Assembly: GCF_055900595.2 (NCBI RefSeq)
Contig: NZ_CM148325.1
Strand: one strand, 5' to 3'
DNA length: 64,000 nucleotides
Both the position numbers and the translations under genes were made by a program. Position 1 is the stretch's first letter. Every line of letters starts with the position of its first letter. This document shows, piece after piece, positions 32,502 to 64,000 of this stretch. The notes below the pieces were generated by a model. That model saw nothing but the letters and a program-made list of their open reading frames with translations, searched no databases and was not told the DNA's origin.

Positions 32502-32873
32502 AGCTCCTCCTTAATGACAGGGTTGCGAAGCCCTGATTCTCTTCAGGGTGAATATTAAAGATAACACAAACATTGCGTAACGATTTGATAACAACCCAAA
32601 TTGATAAAAGAGGAGAAACCTTGTGGCAAAGCAAATGAAAACCCCGCCGCAGCGGGGTCAGGGATCAGTGAGTAATGATCCAGAGGAGTTCGGCCCAGAA
32701 GAGCATCGACAGAGAAAATGCGCCCATCCAGGACCAATATTTCATATTTGTGTTGATCATAGGCTACACCCTTAACGGTTATTACTTTGTGTTGAGATAA
32801 CTCAACCTGTTATTGCTGCGGTGTATTAAAAGCCCTTTAATTCATTAAAAATGGGTAATAAGAATGATGATAA

Positions 32874-45113: not shown

Positions 45114-45140
45114 AGTCTTCCATCCGTGGAACGCAATTTG

Positions 45141-45761
45141 TTATAAGAAAGGCTTTACATCACCTACGCCTTCACGTATCACGACTGGCGTATCATCGGT
45201 AAGATCGATAACTGTTGTCGGTTTCTGTCCGAGATAGCCACCGTGAATAATCAAATCCACCTGTTTTTCCAGACGGTCTTTAATCTCTTCCGGATCAGAT
45301 TCGGTAAATTCGCTGCCCGGCAGCATCAGTGATGTGGAAAGCATCGGTTCGCCCAATGCTTCAAGCAACGCCTGCGCAATCGGGTTAGAAGGCACACGCA
45401 TACCGATGGTTTTGCGTTTTTCCTGTAGCAGACGGCGCGGCACTTCTTTCGTCCCTTTCAGAATGAAGGTGTAGTTACCCGGCGTGTTGTTTTTCATCAA
45501 ACGAAACGCAACGTTATCGACAAATGAATAGGTCGAGAGTTCAGAAAGATCGCGACACATCAGGGTAAAGTTGTGACCGTCCGGCAGCTGGCGAATACGA
45601 CAAATACGCTCCATGGCGTTTTTATCTTCAATTTTACAGCCGAGCGCATAGCCGGAATCAGTTGGATAAACAATCACCCCGCCTTTACGCACGATCTCCA
45701 CCGCCTGGTTGATCAGACGTTGCTGCGGGTTATCAGGATGAATATAAAAAAACTGGCTCAT
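45141..45761 (-). CDS. yciO: Sua5/YciO/YrdC-family dsRNA-binding protein
   Basis: ORF trimmed to MSQFFYIHPDNPQQRL..., 206 aa. Confidence 0.88.
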   Translation of the reverse strand: MSQFFYIHPDNPQQRLINQAVEIVRKGGVIVYPTDSGYALGCKIEDKNAMERICRIRQLPDGHNFTLMCRDLSELSTYSFVDNVAFRLMKNNTPGNYTFILKGTKEVPRRLLQEKRKTIGMRVPSNPIAQALLEALGEPMLSTSLMLPGSEFTESDPEEIKDRLEKQVDLIIHGGYLGQKPTTVIDLTDDTPVVIREGVGDVKPFL

Positions 45762-46639
45762 AATTCCCTCTCTGTGGTGTTCTGCGGCTGTTCCCATAGC
45801 TGCCAGACGCCTTCAACGCCTGCGGGCAGCCAGAGTTTACGACCCAGTTCGATCCACGGACATGGCTGATGAAAATCAGATCCTTGTGATGCCCATAAAT
45901 GATGCTGACGCGCAAGTGTCGCCAGCTGGGTGCGTTCATTGGGCGATTGCTGGCACTGCGCGACTTCCATCGCGTCGCCGTGGTGTTCGGCAAAATGCGC
46001 AACCAATCTTTTCAGCCATTTAGCACTAAGATTGTACCGCCCAGGATGAGCTAGCACCGCCTTACCGCCAGAATGATGAATGACATCAATAGCTTGTTCT
46101 ATTGTACACCACTGTGGCGGAACGTATCCGGTTTTCCCGCGCGCCAGATATTTTTTAAAGATATCCGCCATTGAACTGGCTTTGCCACATTCAACCAAGA
46201 AACGAGCAAAATGACCGCGCGTCACCGCACCGCCCTGCGCCAGTCGTTGCGCGCCTTCCAGCGCCCCAGGTATTTGCGCTTTTTCCAGTCTTTCAGCAAT
46301 TAACTTCGCCCGCTGATTGCGCCGTTCTGTCTGCTGCGCGAGGAACTCACACATTAGCGGATGAGTAATATCAATATTCAGCCCGACAATATGAATTTCA
46401 TGATTTTCCCAGACGGTGGATATTTCCACGCCAGGAATAAGATTCAGTGCCAGTCCTGAACGTGAAATTTCTTCTCTTGCTGGCGCGATTGCCGCTGTGG
46501 TGTCATGGTCGGTGATCGCCAGGGTGCCGACGCGCATCTCGACTGCACGGTGCACCAATGCTTCTGGCGTCAGGCAGCCATCGGAAGCTGTGGTATGGCT
46601 GTGCAGGTCATAAATCACTGCGTAATTCGTGTCGCTCAA
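45758..46639 (-). CDS. trpH: PHP-domain 5-prime-3-prime exoribonuclease/phosphoesterase
   Basis: PHP motif YDLHSHTTASDG; a start at TTG 46639 gives 293 aa; the upstream ORF extension would overrun the trp promoter. Confidence 0.8.
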   Translation of the reverse strand: MSDTNYAVIYDLHSHTTASDGCLTPEALVHRAVEMRVGTLAITDHDTTAAIAPAREEISRSGLALNLIPGVEISTVWENHEIHIVGLNIDITHPLMCEFLAQQTERRNQRAKLIAERLEKAQIPGALEGAQRLAQGGAVTRGHFARFLVECGKASSMADIFKKYLARGKTGYVPPQWCTIEQAIDVIHHSGGKAVLAHPGRYNLSAKWLKRLVAHFAEHHGDAMEVAQCQQSPNERTQLATLARQHHLWASQGSDFHQPCPWIELGRKLWLPAGVEGVWQLWEQPQNTTEREL

Positions 46640-46713
46640 GGCGCACTCCCGTTTTGGATAATGTTTTTGCGCCGACATCATAACGGTTCTGGCAAATATT
46701 CTGAAATGAGCTG

Positions 46714-46748
46714 TTGACAATTAATCATCGAACTAGTTAACTAGTACG
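46714..46748 (+). promoter_or_regulatory. trp promoter with TrpR operator
   Basis: TTGACA (46714-46719), TTAACT -10 (46737-46742), operator palindrome cgaactagttaactagtacg matching the textbook trp promoter/operator. Confidence 0.9.
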
Positions 46749-46775
46749 CAAGTTCACGTAAAAAGGGTATCGACA

Positions 46776-46820
46776 ATGAAAGCGATTTTCGTACTGAAAG
46801 GTTGGTGGCGCACTTCCTGA
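46776..46820 (+). CDS. trpL: trp operon leader peptide
   Basis: atgaaagcgattttcgtactgaaaggttggtggcgcacttcctga encodes [14 protein letters not shown] with tandem Trp codons. Confidence 0.92.
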
Positions 46821-46862
46821 AACGGGCAGTGTATTCACCATGCGTAAAGCAACCAGATACCC

Positions 46863-46890
46863 AGCCCGCCTAATGAGCGGGCTTTTTTTT
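46863..46890 (+). terminator. trp attenuator
   Basis: agcccgcctaatgagcgggc hairpin followed by T8. Confidence 0.9.
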
Positions 46891-46911
46891 GAACAAAATT
46901 AGAGAATAACA

Positions 46912-48474
46912 ATGCAAACACAAAAACCGACTCTCGAACTGTTAACCTGCGAAGGTGCTTATCGCGATAATCCGACCGCGCTTTTTCATCAGTTGTGTGG
47001 GGATCGTCCGGCAACGCTGCTGCTGGAATCCGCAGATATCGACAGCAAGGATGATTTAAAAAGCCTGCTGCTGGTGGACAGTGCGCTGCGCATTACAGCA
47101 TTAGGTGACACTGTCACTATTCAGGCACTTTCCGGCAATGGCGAAGCTCTGCTGGCATTACTGGATAACGCCCTGCCTGCGGGTGTGGAAAATGAACAAT
47201 CACCAAACTGCCGCGTGCTGCGCTTCCCTCCTGTCAGTCCATTGCTGGATGAAGACGCCCGCTTATGCTCCCTTTCGGTTTTTGACGCTTTCCGCTTATT
47301 GCAGAATCTGTTGAATGTACCGAAGGAAGAACGGGAAGCGATGTTCTTTGGCGGCCTGTTCTCTTATGACCTTGTGGCGGGGTTTGAAGATTTACCGCAA
47401 CTGGCAGCGGAAAATAACTGCCCTGATTTCTGTTTTTATCTCGCTGAAACGCTGATGGTTATCGATCATCAGAAAAAAAGTACCCGTATTCAGGCCAGCC
47501 TGTTTGGTCAAAATGAAGAAGAAAAACAACGTCTCACTGCTCGCCTGAACGAACTTCGCCAGCAACTGACCGAAACCGCGCCACCGCTGCCGGTAGTTTC
47601 CGTGCCGCATATGCATTGTGAATGTAATCAGAGCGATGAAGAGTTCGGTGGCGTAGTGCGTTCGTTGCAAAAAGCGATTCGCGCCGGAGAAATTTTCCAG
47701 GTCGTGCCATCTCGCCGTTTCTCGCTGCCCTGCCCGTCACCGCTGGCGGCCTATTACGTGCTGAAAAAGAGTAATCCCAGCCCATACATGTTTTTTATGC
47801 AGGATAATGATTTCACCCTGTTTGGTGCGTCGCCGGAAAGTTCGCTCAAGTATGACGCCACCAGCCGCCAGATTGAGATCTACCCGATTGCCGGAACACG
47901 TCCACGAGGACGTCGCGCCGATGGTTCACTGGACAAAGACCTCGACAGCCGCATTGAACTGGAGATGCGTACCGACCATAAAGAGCTTTCTGAACATCTG
48001 ATGCTGGTGGATCTCGCCCGAAATGACCTTGCGCGCATTTGCACTCCTGGCAGCCGCTACGTTGCCGATCTGACCAAAGTTGACCGTTACTCTTACGTGA
48101 TGCATCTCGTCTCCCGCGTGGTCGGTGAGCTGCGCCACGATCTTGACGCCCTGCACGCTTACCGCGCCTGTATGAACATGGGTACGTTAAGCGGTGCCCC
48201 GAAAGTGCGCGCCATGCAGTTAATTGCCGAAGCGGAAGGTCGTCGACGCGGCAGCTACGGCGGTGCGGTAGGTTATTTCACCGCACATGGCGATCTGGAC
48301 ACCTGCATTGTCATCCGTTCGGCGCTGGTGGAAAACGGTATCGCCACCGTGCAAGCCGGTGCTGGCGTAGTCCTTGATTCTGTTCCGCAGTCGGAAGCCG
48401 ACGAAACCCGTAATAAAGCCCGCGCTGTACTGCGCGCTATCGCCACCGCGCATCATGCACAGGAGACTTTCTGA
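46912..48474 (+). CDS. trpE: anthranilate synthase component I
   Basis: 520-aa chorismate-binding enzyme translation; first structural gene after the attenuator. Confidence 0.95.
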
Positions 48475-50069
48475 TGGCTGACATTCTGCTGCTCGATAAT
48501 ATCGACTCTTTTACTTATAACCTGGCAGATCAGTTGCGCAGCAATGGACATAACGTGGTGATTTACCGCAACCATATCCCAGCGCAAACATTAATTGAAC
48601 GTCTGGCGACCATGAGCAATCCGGTGCTGATGCTTTCTCCTGGCCCCGGAGTGCCGAGCGAAGCCGGTTGTATGCCGGAACTCCTCACCCGCTTGCGCGG
48701 CAAGCTGCCAATTATCGGCATTTGCCTCGGTCATCAGGCGATTGTCGAAGCTTACGGGGGCTATGTCGGTCAGGCGGGCGAAATTCTTCACGGTAAAGCG
48801 TCGAGCATTGAACATGATGGTCAGGCGATGTTTGCCGGATTAACAAACCCGCTGCCAGTGGCGCGTTATCACTCGCTGGTTGGCAGTAATATTCCGGCCG
48901 GTTTAACCATCAACGCCCATTTTAATGGCATGGTGATGGCGGTGCGTCATGATGCGGATCGCGTTTGTGGATTCCAGTTCCATCCGGAATCCATTCTCAC
49001 CACCCAGGGCGCTCGCCTGCTGGAACAAACGCTGGCCTGGGCACAACAGAAGCTGGAGCCGACCAACACACTGCAACCAATTCTGGAAAAACTGTATCAG
49101 GCGCAGACGCTTAGCCAACAAGAAAGCCACCAGCTGTTTTCAGCGGTGGTGCGTGGCGAGCTGAAACCGGAACAACTGGCGGCTGCATTGGTCAGCATGA
49201 AAATTCGCGGCGAGCACCCGAACGAAATCGCCGGGGCAGCAACTGCCCTTCTGGAAAATGCTGCGCCGTTCCCACGCCCTGATTATCTGTTTGCCGATAT
49301 CGTCGGCACCGGCGGTGACGGCAGCAACAGTATCAATATTTCTACCGCCAGTGCGTTTGTCGCCGCTGCCTGTGGGCTGAAAGTGGCGAAACACGGTAAC
49401 CGCAGCGTCTCCAGTAAATCCGGCTCGTCGGATCTGCTGGCGGCATTCGGTATTAATCTTGATATGAACGCCGATAAATCGCGCCAGGCGCTGGATGAGT
49501 TAGGCGTCTGTTTCCTCTTTGCGCCGAAATATCACACCGGATTTCGCCATGCGATGCCGGTTCGCCAGCAACTGAAAACCCGCACCCTGTTCAACGTGCT
49601 GGGGCCACTGATTAACCCGGCGCATCCGCCGCTGGCGCTAATTGGTGTCTACAGCCCGGAACTGGTGCTGCCAATTGCCGAAACCTTGCGCGTGCTGGGG
49701 TATCAACGCGCAGCGGTGGTGCACAGCGGGGGGATGGATGAAGTTTCATTACACGCGCCGACAATCGTTGCCGAACTGCATGACGGCGAAATTAAGAGCT
49801 ATCAGTTGACCGCTGAAGATTTTGGCCTGACACCCTACCATCAGGAGCAACTGGCAGGCGGAACACCGGAAGAAAACCGTGACATTTTAACACGCTTGTT
49901 ACAAGGTAAAGGCGACGCAGCCCATGAAGCAGCTGTCGCGGCGAATGTCGCCATGTTAATGCGCCTGCATGGCCAGGAAGATCTGCAAACCAATGCGCAA
50001 ACCGTTCTTGAGGTACTGCGCAGTGGTTCCGCTTACGACAGAGTCACCGCACTGGCGGCACGAGGGTAA
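48474..50069 (+). CDS. trpD: anthranilate synthase component II / anthranilate phosphoribosyltransferase
   Basis: 531 aa; glutamine amidotransferase N-terminal domain fused to phosphoribosyltransferase; TGATG overlap with trpE. Confidence 0.95.
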
Positions 50070-51431
50070 ATGATGCAAACCGTTTTAGCGAAAATCGTCG
50101 CAGACAAGGCGATTTGGGTAGAAGCCCGCAAACAGCAGCAACCGCTGGCCAGTTTTCAGAATAAGGTTCAGCCGAGCACGCGACATTTTTATGATGCGCT
50201 ACAGGGTGCACGCACGGCGTTTATTCTGGAGTGCAAGAAAGCGTCGCCGTCAAAAGGCGTGATACGTGATGATTTCGATCCGGCACGCATTGCCGCCATT
50301 TATAAGCATTACGCTTCGGCAATTTCTGTACTGACTGATGAGAAATATTTCCAGGGGAGCTTTGATTTCCTCCCCATCGTCAGCCAAATCGCCCCGCAAC
50401 CGATTTTATGTAAAGACTTTATTATCGACCCTTACCAGATCTATCTGGCGCGCTATTACCAGGCCGATGCCTGTTTATTAATGCTGTCGGTGCTGGACGA
50501 CGATCAGTATCGCCAGCTCGCTGCTGTAGCCCACAGTCTGGAGATGGGCGTGCTGACCGAAGTCAGTAATGAAGAGGAGCTGGAGCGCGCCATTGCATTG
50601 GGAGCAAAAGTCGTTGGCATTAACAACCGCGATCTGCGTGATTTGTCGATTGATCTTAACCGTACCCGCGAGCTTGCGCCGAAACTGGGGCACAACGTGA
50701 CGGTAATCAGCGAATCCGGCATCAATACTTACGCCCAGGTGCGTGAGTTAAGCCACTTCGCTAACGGCTTTCTGATTGGTTCGGCGCTAATGGCCCATGA
50801 TGATTTGAACGCCGCCGTGCGCCGGGTGTTGCTGGGTGAGAATAAAGTGTGTGGTCTGACGCGTGGGCAAGATGCTAAAGCAACTCATGACGCGGGCGCG
50901 ATTTACGGTGGATTGATATTTGTTACAACGTCACCCCGTTGCGTCAGCGTTGAACAGGCGCAGGAAGTGATGGCTGCGGCACCGTTGCAATACGTTGGCG
51001 TGTTCCGCAATCACGATATTGCCGATGTGGTGGACAAAGCTAAGGTGTTATCGCTGGCGGCAGTGCAACTGCATGGTAATGAAGATCAGCTGTATATCGA
51101 CACTCTGCGTGAGGCTCTGCCAGCAAACGTCGCCATCTGGAAGGCTTTAAGTGTCGGTGAAACTCTTCCCGCGCGCGATTTTCAGCACATCGATAAATAT
51201 GTATTCGACAACGGTCAGGGCGGGAGCGGACAACGTTTCGACTGGTCACTGTTAAACGGTCAATCGCTTGGCAACGTTCTGCTGGCGGGTGGCTTAGGCG
51301 CAGATAACTGCGTGGAAGCGGCACAAACCGGCTGCGCCGGGCTTGATTTTAATTCTGCTGTAGAGTCGCAACCGGGCATCAAAGACGCACGTCTTTTGGC
51401 CTCGGTTTTCCAGACGCTGCGCGCATATTAA
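50070..51431 (+). CDS. trpC: indole-3-glycerol phosphate synthase / phosphoribosylanthranilate isomerase
   Basis: 453-aa bifunctional translation. Confidence 0.95.
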
Positions 51432-51442
51432 GGAAAGGAACA

Positions 51443-52636
51443 ATGACAACATTACTTAACCCGTATTTTGGTGAGTTTGGCGGCATGTACGTGCCACAAA
51501 TCCTGATGCCTGCTCTGCGCCAGCTGGAAGAAGCTTTTGTCAGCGCGCAAAAAGATCCTGAATTTCAGGCCCAGTTCAACGACCTGCTGAAAAACTATGC
51601 CGGGCGCCCAACCGCGCTGACCAAATGTCAGAACATTACAGCCGGCACTAACACTACGCTGTATCTGAAGCGTGAAGATTTACTGCACGGTGGCGCGCAT
51701 AAAACTAACCAGGTGCTCGGTCAAGCTTTACTGGCGAAGCGGATGGGTAAAACTGAAATCATTGCCGAAACCGGTGCAGGTCAGCATGGCGTGGCTTCTG
51801 CGCTTGCCAGCGCCCTGCTCGGCCTGAAATGCCGTATTTATATGGGTGCCAAAGACGTTGAACGCCAGTCGCCTAACGTTTTTCGTATGCGCTTGATGGG
51901 TGCGGAAGTGATCCCGGTGCATAGCGGTTCCGCGACGCTGAAAGATGCCTGTAACGAGGCGCTACGCGACTGGTCCGGCAGTTATGAAACCGCGCACTAT
52001 ATGCTGGGCACTGCAGCTGGCCCGCATCCTTACCCGACCATTGTGCGTGAGTTTCAGCGGATGATTGGCGAAGAAACGAAAGCGCAGATTCTGGAAAGAG
52101 AAGGTCGTCTGCCGGATGCCGTTATTGCTTGTGTTGGCGGCGGTTCGAATGCCATCGGCATGTTTGCTGATTTCATCAACGAAACCGACGTCGGGCTGAT
52201 CGGCGTGGAGCCTGGTGGTCACGGTATCGAAACTGGCGAGCACGGCGCACCGTTAAAACATGGTCGCGTGGGCATCTATTTCGGTATGAAAGCGCCAATG
52301 ATGCAAACCGAAGACGGGCAGATTGAAGAATCTTACTCGATTTCTGCCGGACTGGATTTCCCGTCAGTCGGCCCGCAACACGCTTATCTCAACAGCATTG
52401 GACGCGCTGATTATGTGTCAATCACCGATGATGAAGCTCTGGAAGCCTTCAAAACGCTGTGCCTGCACGAAGGGATTATCCCGGCGCTGGAATCCTCCCA
52501 CGCGCTGGCCCACGCACTGAAAATGATGCGCGAAAACCCGGAAAAAGAGCAGCTACTGGTGGTTAACCTTTCCGGTCGCGGCGATAAAGACATCTTCACC
52601 GTTCACGATATTTTGAAAGCACGAGGGGAAATCTGA
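51443..52636 (+). CDS. trpB: tryptophan synthase beta chain
   Basis: 397 aa; PLP-enzyme translation. Confidence 0.95.
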
Positions 52637-53442
52637 TGGAACGCTATGAATCTCTGTTTGCCCAACTGAAGGAGCGCAAAGAAGGCGCATTCGTTCCTTT
52701 CGTCACCCTCGGTGATCCGGGCATTGAGCAGTCGCTGAAAATTATCGATACGCTAATTGAAGCCGGTGCTGACGCGCTGGAGTTAGGTATCCCCTTCTCC
52801 GACCCACTGGCAGATGGTCCGACGATTCAAAACGCCACACTGCGTGCTTTTGCGGCGGGAGTAACCCCGGCGCAGTGCTTTGAGATGCTGGCACTCATTC
52901 GCCAGAAGTACCCGACCATTCCGATCGGCCTTTTGATGTATGCCAACCTGGTGTTTAACAAAGGCATTGATGAGTTTTATGCCCAGTGCGAAAAAGTCGG
53001 CGTCGATTCGGTGCTGGTTGCCGATGTGCCCGTGGAAGAGTCTGCGCCCTTCCGCCAGGCCGCGTTGCGCCATAATGTCGCACCTATCTTTATTTGCCCG
53101 CCGAATGCCGACGAGGATTTGCTGCGCCAGATTGCCTCTTATGGCCGTGGTTACACCTATTTATTGTCGCGTGCGGGCGTGACCGGAGCTGAAAACCGCG
53201 CCGCGTTACCTCTCAATCATCTGGTTGCGAAGCTGAAAGAGTACAACGCTGCGCCTCCATTGCAAGGATTTGGTATTTCCGCCCCGGATCAGGTAAAAGC
53301 AGCGATTGATGCAGGAGCTGCGGGCGCGATTTCTGGTTCGGCAATTGTTAAAATCATCGAGCAACATATTAATGAGCCAGAGAAAATGCTGGCGGTACTG
53401 AAAGCTTTTGTACAACCGATGAAAACAGCGACGCGCAGTTAA
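52636..53442 (+). CDS. trpA: tryptophan synthase alpha chain
   Basis: 268 aa; overlaps the trpB stop. Confidence 0.95.
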
Positions 53443-53449
53443 TCCCACA

Positions 53450-53476
53450 GCCGCCAGTTCCGCTGGCGGCATTTTA
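53450..53476 (+). terminator. trp operon terminator
   Basis: gccgccag ttcc gctggcggc hairpin followed by atttt, just after the trpA stop. Confidence 0.8.
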
Positions 53477-53822
53477 ACTATCTTTAATGAAGCAGGAAAA
53501 ATCCTAAATTCATTTATTATTTATCTTTTTACCGTTTCGCTTACCCCTGACGTACGTCAACTTACGTCATTTTTCCGCCCAAAAGTAATATAATCAAACA
53601 AATTAATCCCGCAACAAAACACTACTAAAATCAATAATTTTCTCTAACCCACTTATTTCTTGGGTATTTATGAATATATCGAAAGTTTTTTTCAAAATAT
53701 ATTTTTCACATTCCTTCTCACTTTGCTCAATTTGACTAATCCTCATTACCGACTAATTTTAATGAGTGTCGACACACAACACTCATATTTATGAAACAAT
53801 ACAACGCAACGGGAGAAATAAC

Positions 53823-54002
53823 ATGGCCGAACATCGTGGTGGTTCAGGAAATTTCGCCGAAGATCGTGAGAAGGCATCAGACGCAGGCCGTAAAGGCGGT
53901 CAACACAGCGGCGGTAATTTTAAAAATGATCCGCAACGCGCATCCGAAGCGGGTAAAAAAGGCGGTCAGCACAGCGGTGGAAATAAATCAGGAAAATCCT
54001 GA
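53823..54002 (+). CDS. yciG: KGG-repeat general stress protein
   Basis: ORF trimmed to MAEHRGGSGNFAEDREKASDAGRKGGQHSGGNFKNDPQRASEAGKKGGQHSGG..., 59 aa. Confidence 0.8.
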   Translation: MAEHRGGSGNFAEDREKASDAGRKGGQHSGGNFKNDPQRASEAGKKGGQHSGGNKSGKS

Positions 54003-54093
54003 TCCGCCGTTAATTATTAATATCAGCTGACGTTGATAAAGATAATTGCATCTGCGGGCCGTATGGCTCGCAGTGATTTCACTGGAGAAAAAT

Positions 54094-54594
54094 ATGAATA
54101 TGAAGTCCATTGAAGATGTATTTATTCACCTGCTTTCAGACACCTACAGTGCAGAAAAACAATTAACACGGGCACTAGCAAAACTCGCCAGAGCAACATC
54201 AAACGAAAAATTAAGTCAGGCTTTTCATGCACACCTCGAGGAAACTCATGGACAGATTGAACGTATTGATCAAGTTGTGGAGTCCGAATCGAACCTGAAA
54301 ATTAAGCGCATGAAATGTGTGGCAATGGAAGGTCTCATTGAAGAAGCTAATGAGGTCATCGAAAGCACCGAGAAAAACGAAGTGCGTGATGCCGCACTGA
54401 TTGCCGCTGCACAGAAAGTCGAGCACTATGAGATCGCCAGTTACGGGACCTTAGCGACGCTGGCTGAACAATTAGGTTATCGTAAAGCAGCGAAGCTTCT
54501 GAAAGAAACCCTGGAAGAAGAAAAGGCCACCGACATCAAATTGACTGATCTGGCCCTTAATAACGTAAATAAGAAAGCCGAAAATAAAGCCTGA
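54094..54594 (+). CDS. yciF: DUF892/ferritin-like stress protein
   Basis: ORF trimmed to MNMKSIEDVFIHLLSDTY..., 166 aa. Confidence 0.85.
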   Translation: MNMKSIEDVFIHLLSDTYSAEKQLTRALAKLARATSNEKLSQAFHAHLEETHGQIERIDQVVESESNLKIKRMKCVAMEGLIEEANEVIESTEKNEVRDAALIAAAQKVEHYEIASYGTLATLAEQLGYRKAAKLLKETLEEEKATDIKLTDLALNNVNKKAENKA

Positions 54595-54639
54595 AATATG
54601 AACTTTAACTTTTAGTCATTTTATAAAGAGGACATTTTC

Positions 54640-55146
54640 ATGAATCGTATTGAACATTATCATGACTGGTTACGTGACGCCCACGCAATGGAAAAGCAAG
54701 CCGAATCTATGCTTGAATCCATGGCCAGCCGCATAGATAATTATCCTGAGCTACGCGCTCGTATTGAACAACATCTTAGTGAAACCAAAAACCAGATTGT
54801 ACAACTGGAAACTATTCTTGATCGTAATGACATTTCACGCTCAGTCATTAAAGATTCTATGAGTAAAATGGCTGCACTTGGGCAGTCAATCGGTGGTATA
54901 TTCCCTTCTGATGAAATAGTCAAAGGCTCTATTAGCGGATATGTCTTCGAGCAATTTGAAATCGCCTGTTATACCTCACTCTTAGCAGCAGCAAAAAATG
55001 CCGGTGATACAGCCTCAATTCCGATTATCGAAGCGATTTTAAATGAGGAAAAGCAAATGGCCGACTGGCTGATTCAGCATATTCCGCAAACAACGGAGAA
55101 ATTTTTAATTCGCTCTGAAACTGATGGCGTAGAAGCGAAGAAATAA
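54640..55146 (+). CDS. yciE: DUF892/ferritin-like stress protein
   Basis: 168-aa YciF paralogue immediately downstream. Confidence 0.85.
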   Translation: MNRIEHYHDWLRDAHAMEKQAESMLESMASRIDNYPELRARIEQHLSETKNQIVQLETILDRNDISRSVIKDSMSKMAALGQSIGGIFPSDEIVKGSISGYVFEQFEIACYTSLLAAAKNAGDTASIPIIEAILNEEKQMADWLIQHIPQTTEKFLIRSETDGVEAKK

Positions 55147-55170
55147 TACCCTTTATACCATGTCCTTATT

Positions 55171-55196
55171 GACCCCGTAATTACGGGGTCATTTTT
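55171..55196. terminator. bidirectional terminator between yciE and the ompW remnant
   Basis: gaccccgtaa / ttacggggtc perfect hairpin followed by atttttg. Confidence 0.75.
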
Positions 55197-55204
55197 GTGC
55201 GGAA

Positions 55205-55321
55205 TTAAAAACGATATCCTGCTGAGAACATAAACACCCACGGATCAAGACGTACGCTATCGTGTTGCTGCGCACCACCCAGCTTATAATTTGCGGTGGT
55301 GTCAATATCCATGTACCAGAC
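55205..55321 (-). pseudogene. ompW: 3-prime fragment of ompW (last ~38 codons)
   Basis: Reverse-strand translation ...VWYMDIDTTANYKLGGAQQHDSVRLDPWVFMFSAGYRF-stop matches the OmpW C-terminus as I recall it; no upstream ompW sequence beyond about 55321. Confidence 0.8.
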
Positions 55322-55660
55322 TGGCAGGTTTTAAAAAATCAAATAAGATATTGTATCTGAAAGAAAAAACAGGATTTTGAGATGCTTTTTTATACCGTTT
55401 TTCAGCGTTTTTAACTGCCTGATTTTATTGAAATCTTTTTTAGTTTTGCAGAAAGGATTTTTTGATCGATTGCTTTAATTTTATACATTCCTGATAACGG
55501 AAATTTTTTACCCGTTGACAGTTTTTATCCTCCGGGGCTATATTTCCAACGCGTCAGCAAAATCTGGCGTCGGGATTGGAACCCCGGATGTTTACGGAGC
55601 GATATGAGACGCGCCCGCGTCTTTTTTCATATCGTTTGCACAGTCACATTCGCGATTTAT

Positions 55661-55737
55661 GGCGGGCTGTGTGGGGGAGCCGAAAGGCTCGCCGGTTTCC
55701 GTACCCGGTAGTTCCAACCCCGCACAGTTCGCCACCA
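55661..55737 (+). other. structured element 1 (tRNA/tmRNA-3-prime-like, ends CCACCA)
   Basis: 77 nt; 13-bp outer stem GGCGGGCTGTGTG / CGCACAGTTCGCC (with G-U pairs) enclosing a GAGCC-GAAA-GGCTC hairpin; shares a 26-nt core with element 2. Confidence 0.4.
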
Positions 55738-55791
55738 TGATGATTGGAACCTGAAGGTGGCGATAATTTTCAAATGTACGGAGTTATCGTT

Positions 55792-56352
55792 ATGCCCACT
55801 CAAATTTCTGTCGACACTCTTCCTGCAATCACCCACAACCAGGTCCCCGTTATTACAACTGAACTTCTGGCGCAGTTATACGGAACAAAAATCAAAAACA
55901 TTTCTGATAACTTTCTGAACAACACGACGCGATTCGTGGTAGGAAAGCATTACTTTAAAATTGAAAAAAACGAATTACGCGAGTTTAAGAACAGACCCGA
56001 AACAATCGGGTTAGTTGGTAAAAATGCCCGCTCCCTTATCCTCTGGACAGAACGTGGCGCAGCCCGCCATGCCAAAATGCTCGAAACCGATCAGGCATGG
56101 GAAGTGTTCGAAAAACTGGAAGACTGTTATTTCAGCCAAAAACAACCACCAGCAACACAAAACTCACCCACCCCAAATGATGGATGCGCATTACTGATCC
56201 ACTTTGATAAACACGGTCAGGTAGAGTTCACAGAAAAAGTCCCCGCCGATGCGATGGTATGCACTCTGGAACGGTTTAAATTTTATCTGGAGCAACACGG
56301 CTGGCTCGTTGCCCGTAAAGAACAACTGGTGGAAAGGCTGATGCAGCTTTAG
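55792..56352 (+). CDS. phage antirepressor-like protein with N-terminal ORF6N/KilA-N-type domain
   Basis: Start taken at the ATG with GGAG RBS; translation ...VPVITTELLAQLYGTKIKNISDNFLNNTTRFVVGKHYFKIEKNELREF... resembles ORF6N-family phage proteins. Confidence 0.6.
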   Translation: MPTQISVDTLPAITHNQVPVITTELLAQLYGTKIKNISDNFLNNTTRFVVGKHYFKIEKNELREFKNRPETIGLVGKNARSLILWTERGAARHAKMLETDQAWEVFEKLEDCYFSQKQPPATQNSPTPNDGCALLIHFDKHGQVEFTEKVPADAMVCTLERFKFYLEQHGWLVARKEQLVERLMQL

Positions 56353-56402
56353 CAGATATAACAAGTGTTTTTTCTCGTATGCACGCGCACATATGAATTA
56401 TT

Positions 56403-56459
56403 GTGGGGCGCATGGGGGAGCCGAAAGGCTCGCCGGTTCAACTCCCGCCAGCTCCACCA
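56403..56459 (+). other. structured element 2 with ssrA (tmRNA) 3-prime-end-like sequence
   Basis: Core tgggggagccgaaaggctcgccggtt shared with element 1; last 25 nt GGTTCAACTCCCGCCAGCTCCACCA match my recollection of the tmRNA 3-prime terminus; followed by a T5 run. Confidence 0.45.
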
Positions 56460-56584
56460 TTTTTGACAGGACTGCAACCGGACATCGACAATAAAAACAG
56501 ATAATTACGGACACTGACCAGACAACAAACAGACCTGAACAAGACAAAAATATACACGTGAAATGCACGTGCACTTTATAAAAA

Positions 56585-56612
56585 CCCCAGATTTCACAGT
56601 CTGGGGTTTTTC
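56585..56612 (+). terminator. rho-independent terminator
   Basis: ccccagatttcacagtctgggg hairpin followed by ttttt. Confidence 0.6.
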
Positions 56613-56665
56613 TGTTTGTAAATAATGGTAACAAAAACACATCACCTTTTGGCGTTCCGTTCCTC

Positions 56666-56715
56666 TTGACACTGTTTATCCATACAGTTAAAAATAACAC
56701 TGTATACAAACACAG
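56666..56715 (+). promoter_or_regulatory. promoter with LexA (SOS) box upstream of the dinI-like gene
   Basis: TTGACA at 56666-56671, AT-rich -10 near 56689-56695, CTGT-N8-ACAG box ctgtatacaaacacag at 56700-56715, about 15 bp before the start codon. Confidence 0.65.
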
Positions 56716-56730
56716 TGTAGAGGGATTTTT

Positions 56731-56979
56731 ATGCGTATTGAAATCTGTATCGCTAAAGAAAAATTCAGTAAAATGCCAAAAGGCTCTGTACCTGCTCTAC
56801 AACAGGAAATGTCTAGCCGTATCAGAAAACGATATGACGATGTGGAGGTTATAGTAAAATCCGCCAGTAATGACGGACTGACCATTTTAAGAGCCGTAGA
56901 TAAAGAAAACGCTCAGAAGTTCATACAGGAAACGCTGCAGGAAGTCTGGGAAACTGCTGATGACTGGTTTTTTCACTAA
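56731..56979 (+). CDS. DinI-family DNA-damage-inducible protein (prophage-borne)
   Basis: 82 aa; [16 protein letters not shown]...[14 protein letters not shown] resembles DinI (MRIEV...WESADDWF); GAGGG RBS. Confidence 0.75.
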
Positions 56980-57362
56980 TCAGGACGTCAAATAAATAAC
57001 AACTGTAATTATTCTCTCCAAATTAACAATCTCTGTATACATACTCAGGCGTGTTCACGCATACAACACGCCTTTCTGATATTTAATTGTTTACAGAAAT
57101 ATTGCCGAATAAAAATATAAACCATAGTCTTAAAAAAATAATAATTCCACTATAGCTATCCCAGAACAACCAGTACAAATAATAAAAGACATATCACAGC
57201 AACACTCCACACTGACAGCGCAAAAATAAATGCCGCCTTTGTTATCTTCATATACAAGCAACCTGTCCTGATAATCACCAACTCATGTTTTATTCTTAAC
57301 CATTCGTCACAAATACAACAAAAAATAACAGCAGCAGCACCGATATCACAATATAAGATACA

Positions 57363-57818
57363 TTATTCAACACCTGAATCCCCCGCCGCTTCTCTCCCCT
57401 TTATAAAACGCCCCTTCCGGAATCCAGACCGCTGCAGTGCACGACGAAGATGACCGTATACCGTCTTGTCATTCTGCCCCGTCTCTTCTGTAATCTCCGC
57501 AATACTTAAACCTCTGTAATACCGGTTCAGTACCGCTCTGCGCTCTTCCAGCGTCAACACACCTCCGGCCGCTCTCAGATTCATCATCGACTTATTCAGA
57601 ATACAGCAGGCCTCTCCGGTAAAAAGAATACGAACAATATCTGTATACTCATCATCACAGAATACAAAATAATATCTGAATGACCTGCCTGACTGCACCC
57701 TTCTTCTGTCTGATATGGCATCTTCTATATATCTGATTCGACTGCTTACGGTTCCAAATATCTCTCGCAGGGCTTTTTCAAAATAAATATCTCTCGTCGC
57801 CAGGATTATATCCAGCAT
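57363..57818 (-). CDS. putative HTH regulator with sigma-70 region-4/LuxR-like C-terminus
   Basis: 151 aa; C-terminal LTLEERRAVLNRYYRGLSIAEITEETGQNDKTVYGHLRRALQR fits the region-4 HTH pattern; N-terminal part unassigned. Confidence 0.4.
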   Translation of the reverse strand: MLDIILATRDIYFEKALREIFGTVSSRIRYIEDAISDRRRVQSGRSFRYYFVFCDDEYTDIVRILFTGEACCILNKSMMNLRAAGGVLTLEERRAVLNRYYRGLSIAEITEETGQNDKTVYGHLRRALQRSGFRKGRFIKGREAAGDSGVE

Positions 57819-57836
57819 CTCTGTACCTCATTATAT

Positions 57837-57856
57837 CCCGGGGGACTCCCCCCGGG
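57837..57856 (-). terminator. GC-rich hairpin between the adhesin gene and the downstream regulator gene
   Basis: cccgggggactccccccggg inverted repeat; no clear U-run, so it may be an attenuator or processing structure rather than a terminator. Confidence 0.35.
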
Positions 57857-57879
57857 ACAGATATCTAAATCCTGACCTG

Positions 57880-59520
57880 TCAGAACTCAAAATTCACACC
57901 AGCATTCCACGATGCGGATGACCCACCTGCAGCAACTGCAACTTTTCCTGCCACATTCTCTGTGAAACGGTAGCCCACGCCCACCGCAATGGCCTGCTCA
58001 TCACGGTAACCACCAACGGCTGCTGTCGCGTTAAATTTTCCAACACTGTATGGCTGGAAAAGACCGGCCAGTGCCGCGCTCTGGGCTGCACTCTCCCTTA
58101 ACTCCTTCCGGTTCTCTTTAATCTGCTCCTGCATATTATTCATTCTCTCTGTCGCCATCTTCTGCCAGGCTTCCGTCAAATCCAGACGATGACTGTTATT
58201 CCTTATCGCTGCTGTATTTGAGGCTATTGCTGCATCCGTCTGCGCCACCGCTGCCGATGTGACTGCAATAATATCCCTGCTGAGTTCATCACGTACTGCT
58301 GTAACCTGACTGTCAGTATGAGCACGGGCATCTCTGTATACACCGCCTATCTCACCACGCAGACTGTCTCCCTCTGCCTTCAGTTCATCACGTACTGCTG
58401 TGACCTGACTGTCAGTATGAGCACGGGCATCTCTGTATACACCACCTATCTCACCACGCAGACTGTCTCCCTCTGCCTTCAGTTCATCACGTACTGCTGT
58501 GACCTGACTGTCAGTATGAGCACGGGCATCTCTGTATACACCGCCTATCTCACCACGCAGACTGTCTCCCTCTGCCTTCAGTTCATCACGTACTGCTGTG
58601 ACCTGACTGTCAGTATGAGCACGGGCATCTCTGTATACACCACCTATCTCACCACGCAGACTGTCTCCCTCTGCCTTCAGTTCATCACGTACTGCTGTGA
58701 CCTGACTGTCAGTATGAGCACGGGCATCTCTGTATACACCGCCTATCTCACCACGCAGACTGTCTCCCTCTGCCTTCAGTTCATCACGTACTGCTGTGAC
58801 CTGACTGTCAGTATGAGCACGGGCATCTCTGTATACACCACCTATCTCACCACGCAGACTGTCTCCCTGTGATTTCACTTCAACCCCAAGGTTGCGGGTA
58901 CGATTATCCAGCTCCACGACGAATTCTTTAACAGGGACTGTCTGAGCATTTCCGTCAGCCCTTCCGTCAGCAGTGATTCGGCCTGATGAATCCAGAACAA
59001 AATTCTGGCCTTCAACTACATTTTTATACAATGATGACAATCCCGATGTTGTATTACTAATTTTAATAAAATCCTCAGCGGTACCACCAGCATTAACAGC
59101 GGCGATATAATCATCCTTGTTTTCTGGCTTGATTATTTTTTGTAGTGATTCTTTTGTATCAACAATGGACTTTATATCTTCTGCTTTTATATTTCTGATG
59201 TTTTCGGCTTTTAATGCATCTGAGTAGATGGGGTAAGTTAGCAAATCCTGAGCAACAATATGCCTAGCATTCTCAGGAGCTGCTAATATAGCACGCGTAA
59301 TAGAATCATTCGGGACAATACGCCCTGTATTAGCTCCAGTAATAGTATTAATAAGATTAACATCATTACCTTTTGATATTACTGCCGCACCATTATCATA
59401 CAGAGTAACCTCATATCCATCTACATTAAAACTCTCTTCTGCCATAACCCCCACAGAGTAACATAACAGCGCACCGGTAACCGCCATTGCCAATACATTC
59501 TTTGCCATTATAAATTTCAT
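57880..59520 (-). CDS. YadA-like trimeric autotransporter adhesin (Eib-like), prophage-encoded
   Basis: 546 aa; signal peptide; C-terminus [62 protein letters not shown] matches the YadA membrane anchor; coiled-coil stalk with six 33-aa repeats. Confidence 0.8.
58285..58875. repeat. six tandem copies of a 99-bp unit inside the adhesin gene
   Basis: Near-identical 99-bp units encoding [33 protein letters not shown]; successive copies alternate a synonymous ccgcc/ccacc difference, so the array is effectively 3 x 198 bp. Confidence 0.9.
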
Positions 59521-59955
59521 ATGGTATATCCTGTTAAGAAGATTAAACTGTAACCCCCCCTGAATAAGCAGGCGAGATTCTTTTCCAGGATACCTTTCAG
59601 AGTCACCACTGCATTGATTTTAACAATCAATACAGTTAACATGGAATTATAGGATAAATGCACCCCGATAAAACAATATGAGCGTTCTTGTCCCCATATG
59701 TCAGCAGAGCATTCAGATATAGCTGTCAGAATAACCGTTTCCTACATCAGTCATTCATCACAGACTCAATTGTGAATCAGTTCACCTTTTTTGCAATTCC
59801 TTTATTGATCGAAAGCAGTTAATCACAGAAATTAATTACCGGAGTGAAAGCATTTGCTATGTAAACATTCCCAGAAGACATCTTCATGTTGAATATTATT
59901 CCCTTATTGACTACACCCCTCTGACAGAATTTTCAGAGGGGTTTTTTTATCAGTT

Positions 59956-60531
59956 TCACCATCCAACCCTGTACGCCAGAATGGTTTCACTGTCACTCAG
60001 TTCTGCTATTGCCTTTTTCATCTCCCTTTGCCTTATATGTATTTCAAGGCCTTTCCTGAACATCGCTTTACCAGCAGCATCACTCAGGGATATCAGTTCA
60101 TCTGCCGTCATCGGTACATCATTATTCTCTGCGTCCGTCCAGAAAAATCCTTCCGGCAACACACCGCCTCTGGCCGCTGATGCCGACATTCCAAGACGTG
60201 TCATGGCTTCCTTTCCATAATCCCATTTCCGTCCTCTGTGCTCAAAAACATACCCTGACGCCTCCATCGCATCACGCCAGGCATTTATCTCCGCGTTTTT
60301 CATCCTGCGTGCTTCTTCCACAGCCATATCATCATTTGCCCGGTACTCACCTACCGGCCCTGCATCACCTCTTATGCAGGCTTCAAATATTTCACGACCG
60401 TAAGACTCAGGATCATCCGCACTTGCTGTAAATACACATTCTGTTTCCGCGTCTGAAAACTTCACTATACAGTTTATGGTCGTATGACCCCTGTCAGCCC
60501 ACACTGGTGACGTGATTTTATCGACCTTCAT
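59956..60531 (-). CDS. putative phage tail-fibre assembly chaperone
   Basis: 191-aa ORF immediately downstream of the tail-fibre gene (15-bp gap); pattern resembles DUF4376-type chaperones; assignment is mainly by position. Confidence 0.45.
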   Translation of the reverse strand: MKVDKITSPVWADRGHTTINCIVKFSDAETECVFTASADDPESYGREIFEACIRGDAGPVGEYRANDDMAVEEARRMKNAEINAWRDAMEASGYVFEHRGRKWDYGKEAMTRLGMSASAARGGVLPEGFFWTDAENNDVPMTADELISLSDAAGKAMFRKGLEIHIRQREMKKAIAELSDSETILAYRVGW

Positions 60532-60545
60532 TCATTTCTCCCCTG

Positions 60546-62396
60546 TCACCGTATTCTCTGAAACAGGCCCCAAATCGTCCCAATGATATTATTGACTGTC
60601 ATGTTAGTTGTGCATAACATCCATGTACCAAGCATATGATTGCCAAATAAAAAGCGGATATCTGTAAGTTTATCCGATGACGACGACACAATAACGGCCT
60701 GTCTGATACGATACCCGGGTATTTCACGGGTATTTGTTACCTCATGATTTCGTTCTATGATCCCCAGAACATAAGACCCCACGGAATAAACACTTCCGAC
60801 GCTCGCTGGCTGCCCCGGCTGTCCCTGCGGACCTGCCGGGCCGCGTGCACCTGTATCGCCCTTTAGTCCCTGAGGACCTGCCGGGCCGCGTTCACCTGTA
60901 TCCCCCTTTAGTCCCTGTGGACCTGCCGGACCGCGTTCACCTGTATCGCCCTTTGGTCCCTGTGGGCCACGCTCCCCCTGGGCTCCCAGCTCTTTCCATT
61001 CAGACCAGGGGCCATTACCGGTAAAATTACCAGTAACAGTTCTTACGAACTTTCGTGGTGGGTTCCAGGTTGTATATTCATGCTGGCAATATCCCCATGC
61101 ACCAACTCTTACCTGAAGATAACCCGCTCTCTGAATCGGATAATTATTTTCTCGTGTAGCCCCACTGTCTGATGGCTGATAATAATCACCCTGATCGGTC
61201 ACTCGTCCCAGTCGGTTCAGATCACCATTCAGCAGTTGTCCACGGGCTGACTCTCCTCTTGGTCCCTGAGGGCCTTCCGGACCACGTGCACCTGTTTCGC
61301 CCTTTGCTCCCTGTGGACCTGCCGGGCCGCGTTCACCTGTTTCACCTTTTGGTCCCTGTGGACCTGCCGGGCCGCGTTCACCTGTATCCCCCTTTAGTCC
61401 CTGTGGACCTGCCGGACCGCGTTCACCTGTTTCACCTTTTGGTCCCTGTGGTCCTGCCGGGCCGCGTTCACCTGTTTCACCCTTTGCTCCCTGTGGACCT
61501 TCCGGGCCACGTTCACCTGTATCGCCCTTTAGTCCCTGTGGACCTGCCGGACCGCGTTCACCTGTTTCACCTTTTGGTCCCTGTGGACCTCCCGGATCTC
61601 CTTTATCCCCCTTAGGGCCTTTTTCTCCTCGCTCACCCTTTTCTCCCTTCAGACCCTGAGGGCCTTCCGGACCACGTGCACCTGTTTCGCCCTTTGCTCC
61701 CTGTGGACCTGCCGGGCCGCGTTCACCTGTTTCACCTTTTGGTCCCTGTGGACCTGCCGGGCCGCGTGCACCTGTTTCACCCTTTGGTCCCTGAGGACCT
61801 GCCGGGCCGCGTTCACCTGTATCGCCCTTTAGTCCCTGTGGACCTGCCGGACCGCGTTCACCTGTTTCACCTTTTGGTCCCTGTGGTCCTGCCGGGCCAC
61901 GTGCTCCTGTTTCACCTTTTGGCCCCTGTGGCCCGGTAATGCCTCTTTCACCACGTGCGCCGGTATCCCCTTTCTCTCCTCGTGGTCCCCGGGCAGATGC
62001 AGCTCGTTTCCGGGCTTCCTCCGCCTCAGATGCCGCGGACTCTGCTCTGTGCAGTATGGACTGCACCACAGCCTCCAGCTCTGACAACGCCTTCGGATAA
62101 TAAGGAGCATCTTCCATCTCCATCAGAAATTTATTCAGTGTTCCCGGTGAAGAATCCTCCCTGACCACGATATCTCCCACATACGAAGGACGGTAACCTT
62201 CTGTATTGAGTGTCACCCTGTATATTCCTGGCTCCACATCCATACTGTAACTCCCCGTCTCTTCCGGCATGCCATAAGCCACTGTCGTGGCGATGACTGT
62301 CTCGCTGGTTCTCTTCGCTTTCAGCTCAATAATGCATCCCGGTACCGGTTTTCCGGTTCCGTCCCTCAGCACGCCTGAAATTTTTACAGCCGCCAT
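60546..62396 (-). CDS. phage side tail fibre with collagen-like G-X-Y repeats
   Basis: 616 aa; N-terminus [18 protein letters not shown]...IELKAKR resembles the lambda Stf N-terminal domain; two long G-X-Y blocks separated by an ~90-aa non-collagenous insert; globular C-terminal domain. Confidence 0.8.
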
Positions 62397-62468
62397 ACTC
62401 GCTCCATAAAAAATAATCCCGCAAAATTGCGGGCGTCGTCATTCATTTACAATCGGGTGTTTTTATGA

Positions 62469-62714
62469 TTACTTCACGCACGAAACTTTCGTAAACATAT
62501 CTTCACTCACCCACTGACCATAAAATCTCGGAGCTGATACTTTATACACAGTGCCGCTTTTCGTTTCTATTTTCCCTGTAAGATCTACCGTATAAGCTCG
62601 CTGTAAAACCCCGGGACTCAGCACACCGGTGCACCGGACTCTCTCCGTAACGGAACGGTACCCCGCGCAACCTGATACAAGAAACAGCAAAAAAGTGCAG
62701 ACGATTATTTTCAT
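62469..62714 (-). CDS. small phage lipoprotein (possibly Cor-like superinfection-exclusion protein)
   Basis: 81 aa; signal peptide with lipobox LVSGC; lies between the tail genes and the tail fibre as cor genes do in some lambdoid phages. Confidence 0.4.
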   Translation of the reverse strand: MKIIVCTFLLFLVSGCAGYRSVTERVRCTGVLSPGVLQRAYTVDLTGKIETKSGTVYKVSAPRFYGQWVSEDMFTKVSCVK

Positions 62715-62735
62715 TACATGCCCTCAACATAACTA

Positions 62736-63398
62736 TCAGTACGCATCATAAATTTCTGCATTTATGTAATAACAGAGGTTATTAACAACACCTGAATTAT
62801 CATTGGGCGCCGCTACGTTATCTTCAGCAAAAGTTGACTGACGCCATAACTGTGAGTTTCTGGCATTAAAACTGGCGGTATACCAGTAATAACTCTCCCC
62901 TTCCTGAACTGTCGTCCACTGGGTACACCCCGGCATTACGGCCACATCATGTCCCACACTGATCGGTACATCCTTTTCCCATATTCGCGTCATTTTTACT
63001 TCCAGTGGCAGCATTTCCGTGTTCCAGACCACCCTGCCATGACTGTCGCACAACTGTATTCCCCATTGCGGCCATACATTCACCATGTTGGCAAAAACAT
63101 AAACAACATATGTGCTGTCCTGTTCCATGCCCGGCTCCTGCCCTGTACCAGCGCTGAAAATGTCATACTGCCAGGTACCGTTAAGCTGAACCATTTCACC
63201 ATGGAAGGACTGATTACCGCTTATCTGTTTAATAAAAATCACGCAACGATAATTCGTCGGCACCCCGGTGTCGATAAACTGCATCACCGCATCACGCGCA
63301 CTCAGTGTGAAATGAAAACGGCGCACAAGGTTCAGTGGCGGCGCAACAGGTGATATCCATTCTCTCCCCCGCTCATCAGTTAATTTAAGTGCAAACAT
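62736..63398 (-). CDS. hypothetical phage protein (220 aa)
   Basis: Intact ORF whose start codon overlaps the stop of the upstream gene; no family recognised. Confidence 0.45.
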   Translation of the reverse strand: MFALKLTDERGREWISPVAPPLNLVRRFHFTLSARDAVMQFIDTGVPTNYRCVIFIKQISGNQSFHGEMVQLNGTWQYDIFSAGTGQEPGMEQDSTYVVYVFANMVNVWPQWGIQLCDSHGRVVWNTEMLPLEVKMTRIWEKDVPISVGHDVAVMPGCTQWTTVQEGESYYWYTASFNARNSQLWRQSTFAEDNVAAPNDNSGVVNNLCYYINAEIYDAY

Positions 63399-63658
63399 CA
63401 GATCCCCCTTATCATGACCAGCACGGGTCTTAGCCAGCTTGTGTTGGCATAGTGCACTGTCCAGCCGGATACACTGGCACTGGTATGACTTCCCTGACCG
63501 TTAATCAGAATGGCCGGTGAACAGACTTCCAGACGCCAGCCCTGCAAAGGAGTATAAGAACGCTGCCCCGTCCCTTCAGTGATCACATCCAGCACCCCTG
63601 TTGGGTTTATTTCATGTGTCACAAGGCGCCCTTTGCGCCATACCCGGACTCCGAACAT
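63398..63658 (-). CDS. hypothetical phage protein (86 aa)
   Basis: Start ATG overlaps the upstream stop as TAATG at 63656-63660, and its own stop overlaps the next start. Confidence 0.4.
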   Translation of the reverse strand: MFGVRVWRKGRLVTHEINPTGVLDVITEGTGQRSYTPLQGWRLEVCSPAILINGQGSHTSASVSGWTVHYANTSWLRPVLVMIRGI

Positions 63659-64000
63659 TACAGTCTCCCCAGTCGTACTCTTAACACATTGTTATCGTCA
63701 TATACGTCGATTCGCTCGCCATTGAAAAACAGGCGGCCTGCGCCGGGCCTTCCTGAGTTAATTTCAAGGCTGCCGTTTCTTGATAAACGCCACCCCGGAC
63801 TACCGGAATGAAAATTATCTGACCGGATATCTCCCGTCACTCTGGCAAAATCCACGGTCAGTTTTTTCATGAAAACATCATTCATGAACAGCTGATCACC
63901 CTGAGCCACAAACAAAGGTGTTGTATTGCCATTTTCCGGGTTAATCATCACAATACGATCTGCCTGCATCAGGATCTGACTCTGAATTCCGTCAGACGTA
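63658..64000 (-). CDS. hypothetical phage protein, 5-prime partial (runs past the window edge)
   Basis: Reading frame stays open from 63658 to the window edge; the ATG at 63969 is internal. Confidence 0.4.

Follow-up and report, generated by a model that had tools for sequence, protein, structure and literature searches.

A probable attR site of a lambda-like, PPompW-type prophage inside the 3′ end of ompW

Introduction

The ompW gene is among the most occupied prophage hotspots (Bobay et al., PMC3603311). Nakamura et al. (PLoS Pathog 2021, PMC8112680) described lambda-like prophages of STEC O145:H28 that are located in ompW and have 121-bp attL and attR sites. The attP site was defined by sequencing PCR products across the attP region of excised phage DNA. 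At the family level, site-specific integration and excision are both established, with an attP that contains an ompW-like 121-bp sequence (PMC8112680). The same study documents ompW-ydfJ prophage inversions and prophages that are nested inside PPompW. OI-57/CP-933O of O157:H7 EDL933 also sits in this gene, there called yciD (PMC9144400). Here, we describe a junction in the 3′ end of ompW that was found in a stretch of 64,000 nucleotides (64 kb); this whole stretch is referred to as the window. A preliminary description of the locus had proposed that a prophage is integrated at this position.

Results

A 3′ remnant of ompW is located next to yciE

According to the ORF list, the chromosomal genes before the junction are trpB, trpA, yciG, yciF and yciE, all on the plus strand. 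The features of the junction are the following:

54640..55146, plus strand: yciE, the last chromosomal gene ahead of the junction (ORF list and yciE annotation in homologous loci)
55170..55191, plus strand: terminator-like hairpin with a 9-bp stem, a 4-nt loop and a T-tail, between yciE and the ompW stop codon
55203..55323, no strand: probable attR copy of a 121-bp imperfect duplication (alignment to LC567822.1 repeat_region 43883-44003)
55205..55321, minus strand: ompW 3′ remnant, 38 codons and stop, corresponding to OmpW residues 175-212; probably the displaced original bacterial 3′ end, a pseudogene fragment
55302..55318, no strand: most likely strand-exchange segment, TC(A/G)ATATCCATGTACCA, placed by alignment with DG341-1
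55324..55550, no strand: phage arm of attR, AT-rich (29% GC), with weak residual ompW similarity at 55324-55330

The minus strand of 55205-55321 translates to VWYMDIDTTANYKLGGAQQHDSVRLDPWVFMFSAGYRF followed by a stop codon, and these 38 amino acids are 100% identical to residues 175-212 of K-12 OmpW. A blastn search against the whole window matched nucleotides 514-639 of K-12 ompW to 55330-55205 with 92% identity (E=2e-48), and tblastn placed OmpW amino acids 172-213 at the same position (E=4e-23). This was the sole significant ompW match in the window; the next best blastn hit had an E value of 0.12 or worse, and the first 513 nucleotides of K-12 ompW are absent from the 64 kb. The strength of both searches and the identity of 38 out of 38 amino acids show that the ompW observation is real and far beyond chance. 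They also bear out the preliminary description, according to which only the last approximately 38 codons of ompW are present here on the minus strand. The homologous remnant in related genomes carries the RefSeq label [quoted passage not shown].

A bidirectional terminator had been proposed between yciE and ompW. The hairpin (TGACCCCGTAATTACGGGGTCA, then TTTTTGTG) was scored as a terminator on the plus strand only, which is the direction of yciE, and it is identical in the uninterrupted locus of Z0117EC0005. Since the terminator scan called no terminator-like site on the minus strand at yciE/ompW, the term bidirectional is only half supported, namely for the direction of yciE.

The breakpoint coincides with the attR of PPompW prophages

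The nearest E. coli backbone is that of Z0117EC0005, in which the ompW-yciE locus is uninterrupted. Positions 8940-55330 of the window are colinear with this genome and 99.39% identical over 46,395 nt. In comparison with its attB site the window is identical up to position 55323, contains two mismatches in 55324-55330 (ACTGGCAGGTT versus ACTGACATGTT) and is unrelated from 55331 onwards. Alignment to an uninterrupted ompW locus had been suggested as a check; it places the end of homology at 55323-55330, and the earlier estimate of 55321 is right to within a few bases. The DNA following the junction had been described as AT-rich phage DNA, and a GC content of 29% in 55300-55499 agrees with this. 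Alignment with repeat_region 43883-44003 of LC567822.1 shows that the position of the breakpoint is that of the annotated attR of the PPompW records; the coordinates 55203-55323 were mapped by counting alignment columns against this record. Thus, the window itself contains the remnant, the exact breakpoint and an arm with homology to known ompW prophages. The proposal of a site-specific integration into the 3′ end of ompW is well founded, as the breakpoint equals the attR junction of the published PPompW prophages (PMC8112680).

K-12 is a poor reference for this region, with only 94% identity across yciE-trpA. Positions 45000-55321 (trp-yciE) are 94% identical to K-12, 90-95% identical to most complete E. 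coli genomes and 98% identical to the best one, suggesting that the allele block adjoining the prophage hotspot is recombinant or deeply divergent. A backbone from a non-coli Escherichia, which the divergent yciE-trpA region might indicate, was rejected because 8940-55330 is 99.39% identical to and colinear with Z0117EC0005; the divergence is local to the trp region. The chromosomal part also contains an Rfam match to the enterobacterial sRNA STnc180 (32631-32833, minus strand, 202.7 bits), which is ordinary chromosomal content.

Related prophages carry a rebuilt ompW at their other end

The same junction together with the antirepressor (ant) module was found in 89 complete E. coli genomes, counting those in which at least 80% of window positions 54600-56400 is covered. 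Among the matches listed, which include prophages of DG341-1, GF4, E24377A and others, the junction-spanning identity is 97-98.7%. The prophage of DG341-1 is 47 kb long and its far end consists of an excisionase gene, an Arm-domain integrase gene and a full-length ompW, followed by yciC, yciB, yciA and tonB. GF4 has the same ends as DG341-1 with an internally deleted prophage of 28 kb. In both genomes the far-end ompW encodes the full-length protein of 212 amino acids, and its last roughly 120 nt are supplied by the phage. O157:H7 E32511 shows the same int-side arrangement, with int beside a full-length ompW. Thus, the full architecture of attL, int and rebuilt ompW is visible in close relatives: in attL the body of the host ompW continues into a diverged 3′ end from the phage, and attR keeps the host-type 3′ end. 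A homologue of the integrase of these related prophages was found nowhere in the window. Eleven GenBank records that are, or include, an "Enterobacteria phage PPompW_*" prophage match the int/attL region of these relatives with 92.8% identity, and Escherichia phage 204576 does so with 92.7%. In most of the PPompW records a 121-bp "duplication due to insertion" is annotated, and LC567822.1 has copies of it at both ends.

Occupation of the site is frequent. The attB region is in one piece in 3,440 and split in two places in about 1,300 of the 5,426 complete E. coli genomes. The int-side phage arm together with the phage-derived ompW 3′ end is present in 1,561 of them (roughly 29%), including the type strain ATCC 11775, ST131 strains and EDL933.

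Three-way alignments of attL, attR and attB revealed that the loop-coding part of ompW is host-type in attR and phage-type in attL, which places the crossover on the 5′ side (in the ompW sense) of the loop codons. In DG341-1, the 17-bp sequence TCGATATCCATGTACCA is the only block without differences in attL, attR and attB that is bounded by informative differences, with a phage/host SNP on one side and the phage arm on the other. Judged from this alignment, 55302-55318 is likely the segment in which the strands were exchanged.

The only exact copy of GTTTTGCAGA in the 64-kb window is located at 55443-55452, within the attR arm. Relatives carry three tandem exact copies of GTTTTGCAGA beside int, after the phage-borne ompW 3′ end of attL. 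By analogy to lambda, these positions are suggestive of an arm-type Int-binding site, for which GTTTTGCAGA would be a fitting candidate. For a second arm-type site the attR arm offers only weak candidates with two mismatches, and copies with one mismatch are not above chance over the whole window (nine found versus 6.1 expected). A tRNA or tmRNA attachment site at the junction was also considered and rejected: ARAGORN found nothing in 50000-64000, and the only tmRNA-like signal is a 25-nt ssrA 3′ fragment that lies 1.1 kb inside the prophage, outside the ompW junction.

Escherichia albertii NBRC 107761 (match 5689-5711) contains an attP-like copy of the ompW 3′ end with the phage-type loop AKYKSGVTTVKDS. 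Upstream of this copy are phage-arm-type codons (..LPVWYMD) and not ompW; downstream the reading is Phe-Ser-Leu-Gln-Asn-Leu, as past the stop codon of the O157 attL. The copy resembles "attB-in-PP_3" of PMC8112680. Nine loci of Citrobacter, Kluyvera, Raoultella and Klebsiella show a (V/F/I)LLQ(N/K/T)-type reading after the ompW stop codon; in E. coli attL sites this reading comes from the int-side TTTTGCAGA repeats, and the other genera were compared by the reading only. On one contig of Kluyvera georgiana the 3′ part of ompW is present twice, and the sequence ahead of one of the two copies is not ompW. It appears that phages integrate at the same ompW position well beyond E. coli.

The phage DNA right of the junction

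The DNA to the right of the junction contains the following features:

55515-55544: promoter-like site (promoter scan), upstream of isrK and C4
55551..55627, plus strand: isrK-like sRNA gene (Rfam RF01394, 72.7 bits), which also matches the a1/b1 targets of C4
55655..55739, plus strand: C4 antisense RNA gene, P1/P7 immI-type (Rfam RF01695, 78.9 bits)
55792..56352, plus strand: antirepressor gene (ORF6N/Ant), an ORF annotated as "ORF6N domain-containing protein" in homologous loci, with 85% nucleotide identity to ant genes of Stx phages
56353..64000, minus strand: remaining right arm of the prophage with an ssrA-3′-like remnant, dinI-like gene (plus strand), sigma-like HTH gene, YadA/Eib-like adhesin gene, DUF4376 gene, collagen-repeat tail fibre gene and further tail genes; it runs off the end of the window

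The genes for the tail fibre, the DUF4376 protein and the gpJ region are encoded on the minus strand at 59956-64000 in the same order as in DG341-1. The tail genes adjoin the junction and read towards attR, and the same layout is found at the corresponding end of the DG341-1 prophage. The phage part of the window is the end of a lambda-like prophage at which the tail-fibre and cargo genes lie. Positions 55515-56352 form a P1 immI-like module (promoter-like site, isrK-like sRNA, C4 and ant) that is located right at the prophage end, whereas the homologous ant gene of Stx phages is found in the middle of the phage genome.

Two genes of the right arm contain tandem repeats. The first (57880-59520, minus strand) encodes a YadA-like trimeric autotransporter of 546 amino acids with six near-identical tandem repeats of 99 nt (33 amino acids). 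Its relatives are annotated as immunoglobulin-binding protein, the DNA nearby matches phage P-EibC of ECOR-9, and the sigma-factor-like HTH gene (57363-57818) adjoins it. The second (60546-62396, minus strand) encodes a tail fibre of 616 amino acids, the middle of which consists almost entirely of collagen-like G-X-Y repeats; these are encoded by 17 overlapping copies with a 45-nt period, and the copy number varies among related prophages.

An att-like remnant of another type lies 1.1 kb inside the ompW attR. The sequence GGTTCAACTCCCGCCAGCTCCACCA at 56435-56459 matches the 3′ end of ssrA/tmRNA over 25 nt. Fused to it, at 56395-56438, is a second version of the 5′ half of the C4 gene, which is 84% identical to 55654-55697. 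From 56431 onwards the ssrA′-dinI DNA has matches at the ssrA-dinI junction of CP-1639, a prophage integrated in ssrA, and in the ends of PhiR12 phages. This internal remnant may be left over from an exchange of modules, or it may constitute a potential attB inside the prophage.

The phage-supplied 3′ end changes a loop of OmpW in relatives

The phage-chimeric loop is a feature of attL and was read in the relatives, since attL of the prophage studied here lies beyond the window. The rebuilt OmpW of DG341-1 and GF4 differs from the host type at eight positions, which are all located in residues 185-196 (eight of 12 recoded), so that the host-type loop ANYKLGGAQQHDS is replaced by the phage-supplied ASYKFNGTPVKDA. 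A third version, AKYKSGVTTVKDS, is supplied in PPompW_132418 and O157:H7. An AlphaFold2 model of OmpW, built on 52 enterobacterial OmpW sequences (mean pLDDT 81.5), has strands beta7 at 169-188 and beta8 at 191-211. The changed residues are thus predicted to be at the tip of the last (beta7-beta8) hairpin, and from the topology of an eight-stranded barrel with periplasmic termini this tip would be extracellular.

We also compared the C-termini of OmpW from 63 loci of GTDB species representatives, which were found with an invariant 23-mer of the ompW 3′ end. The segment of residues 185-196 is the naturally variable one among them. The phage-borne loops ASYKFNGTPVKDA and AKYKSGVTTVKDS are equal to no chromosomal OmpW C-terminus in the about 50 Enterobacteriaceae species sampled. 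OmpW has been reported as the receptor of colicin S4 (PMC2649078) and as a phage receptor in Serratia (PMC10132071), in line with the earlier statement that it is a known receptor for phages and colicins. The loop-related phrases that were looked for in the colicin S4 paper do not occur in it.

Discussion

The feature in the window is very probably the attR, that is the right-hand end, of a lambda-like PPompW-type prophage that entered the chromosome via tyrosine-integrase site-specific recombination inside the 3′ end of ompW. This type of junction is already known, common and well described. More than a quarter of the complete E. coli genomes have the ompW site occupied, so that the finding, although real, is an ordinary one. 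The junction itself is not new; the prophage is a new mosaic, because no complete E. coli genome covers at least 80% of its 8.7 kb of phage DNA in the window.

The closest described system is PPompW, represented by PPompW_132418 (LC567822.1), which shares the target gene, the breakpoint and the 121-bp imperfect duplication of the ompW 3′ end, present at both ends of PPompW. Both have a lambda-like layout in which the tail genes lie beside attR; intE/xisE are located at attL in PPompW and would be so here as well. The attR arm of PPompW_132418 is recognisably homologous to the arm in the window, yet diverged. The cargo at the attR end also differs: the PPompW prophages encode the T3SS effectors espO, nleG and espM there, whereas the window contains isrK-C4-ant, dinI, an Eib/YadA-like adhesin gene and a collagen-repeat tail fibre gene. 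In addition, the OmpW loop supplied by the phage is ASYKFNGTPVKDA in the closest relatives of the window and AKYKSGVTTVKDS in PPompW and O157. OI-57/CP-933O occupies the same integration locus (PMC9144400), and O157:H7 genomes have int beside a rebuilt full-length ompW. Its gene content is different (adfO/paa, ckf and others), and at the O157 locus prophages often form a large cluster that is composite or rearranged.

We propose that attP of the phage holds a version of the final ompW segment (roughly 120 nt) that has diverged from that of the host, and that recombination probably occurred within a short stretch of identity around OmpW codons 175-181. The body of the chromosomal ompW would thereby be joined to the phage-supplied 3′ end at attL beside int/xis, which would yield a full-length OmpW of 212 amino acids. 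The original bacterial 3′ end of 38 codons would be displaced to the other end of the prophage, where it would now lie at 55205-55321 between the yciE terminator and the phage arm. An arrangement of this kind is known for e14 in icd, where attP contains the 3′ end of the gene in a diverged form, so that integration duplicates this end and the length of the ORF is unchanged. Both systems supply a replacement 3′ end to a protein-coding gene (PMC3603311), and the integrase of PPompW is labelled intE in GenBank records. The e14 element differs from the ompW prophage in its target gene and core.

The attL site, int and the 5′ part of ompW are located outside the window; from the relatives we infer that the source genome carries the same attL with a rebuilt ompW beyond position 64000. 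The junction might instead be a genuine attR of a prophage that has since been rearranged by inversion, by recombination with another lambdoid prophage or by tandem or nested integration; int, attL and the 5′ half of ompW would then be located elsewhere and precise excision would be lost. Some rearrangement within or between prophages has happened, as the mosaic phage DNA and the internal ssrA-type att remnant at 56435-56459 show. GF4 matches at 99.9% over the first 5 kb only, and for the tail-fibre region the matches are to prophages located elsewhere in the chromosome. Inversions of ompW/ydfJ prophages and nesting in PPompW have been published (PMC8112680), and O157:H7 outbreak strains show prophage-bounded ompW..rspR and trpA..rspA segments. 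The other half of ompW therefore need not be one simple prophage length away. However, both genomes with the same attR arm that were examined (DG341-1 and GF4) have the simple layout from attR to int and attL, and we regard a rearrangement with these consequences as improbable.

It is even less probable, and in our judgement very unlikely, that ompW is truly inactivated because attP gave no usable 3′ end or because attL was deleted, which would leave a strain without OmpW. In favour of this, the window shows nothing of ompW but the 3′ remnant, and one sentence in a review can be read as a disruption of ompW by integration. However, every attL examined (DG341-1, GF4, O157:H7 E32511 and PPompW_132418) restores an open frame of 212 codons that is annotated as intact OmpW, and 1,561 of 5,426 genomes have the int-side arm with the phage-supplied ompW 3′ end. 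The idea that the similarity to ompW is due to chance, to a paralogue or to another gene of the OmpW family, without any junction, is refuted almost beyond doubt by the E value of 2e-48, the 38 of 38 identical amino acids and the exact synteny with yciE and the terminator, which also settle the earlier concern that the C-terminal match might be to a different protein.

For annotation, the junction is useful as it marks one prophage end at a well-known integration hotspot. The 117-nt piece of ompW is to be read as a displaced pseudogene fragment, and it does not indicate that OmpW is lacking in the strain. A functional ompW encoding 38 phage-encoded C-terminal residues is expected at the other end of the prophage. 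Based on the model of the hairpin tip, integration may not be neutral for OmpW: we raise, as a doubtful and quite speculative idea, that the att site itself brings about a lysogenic conversion that alters a surface epitope or receptor. If true, a surface epitope or receptor (for colicin S4 and OmpW-dependent phages) would be altered in those complete E. coli genomes, roughly 29%, whose ompW 3′ end is phage-derived.
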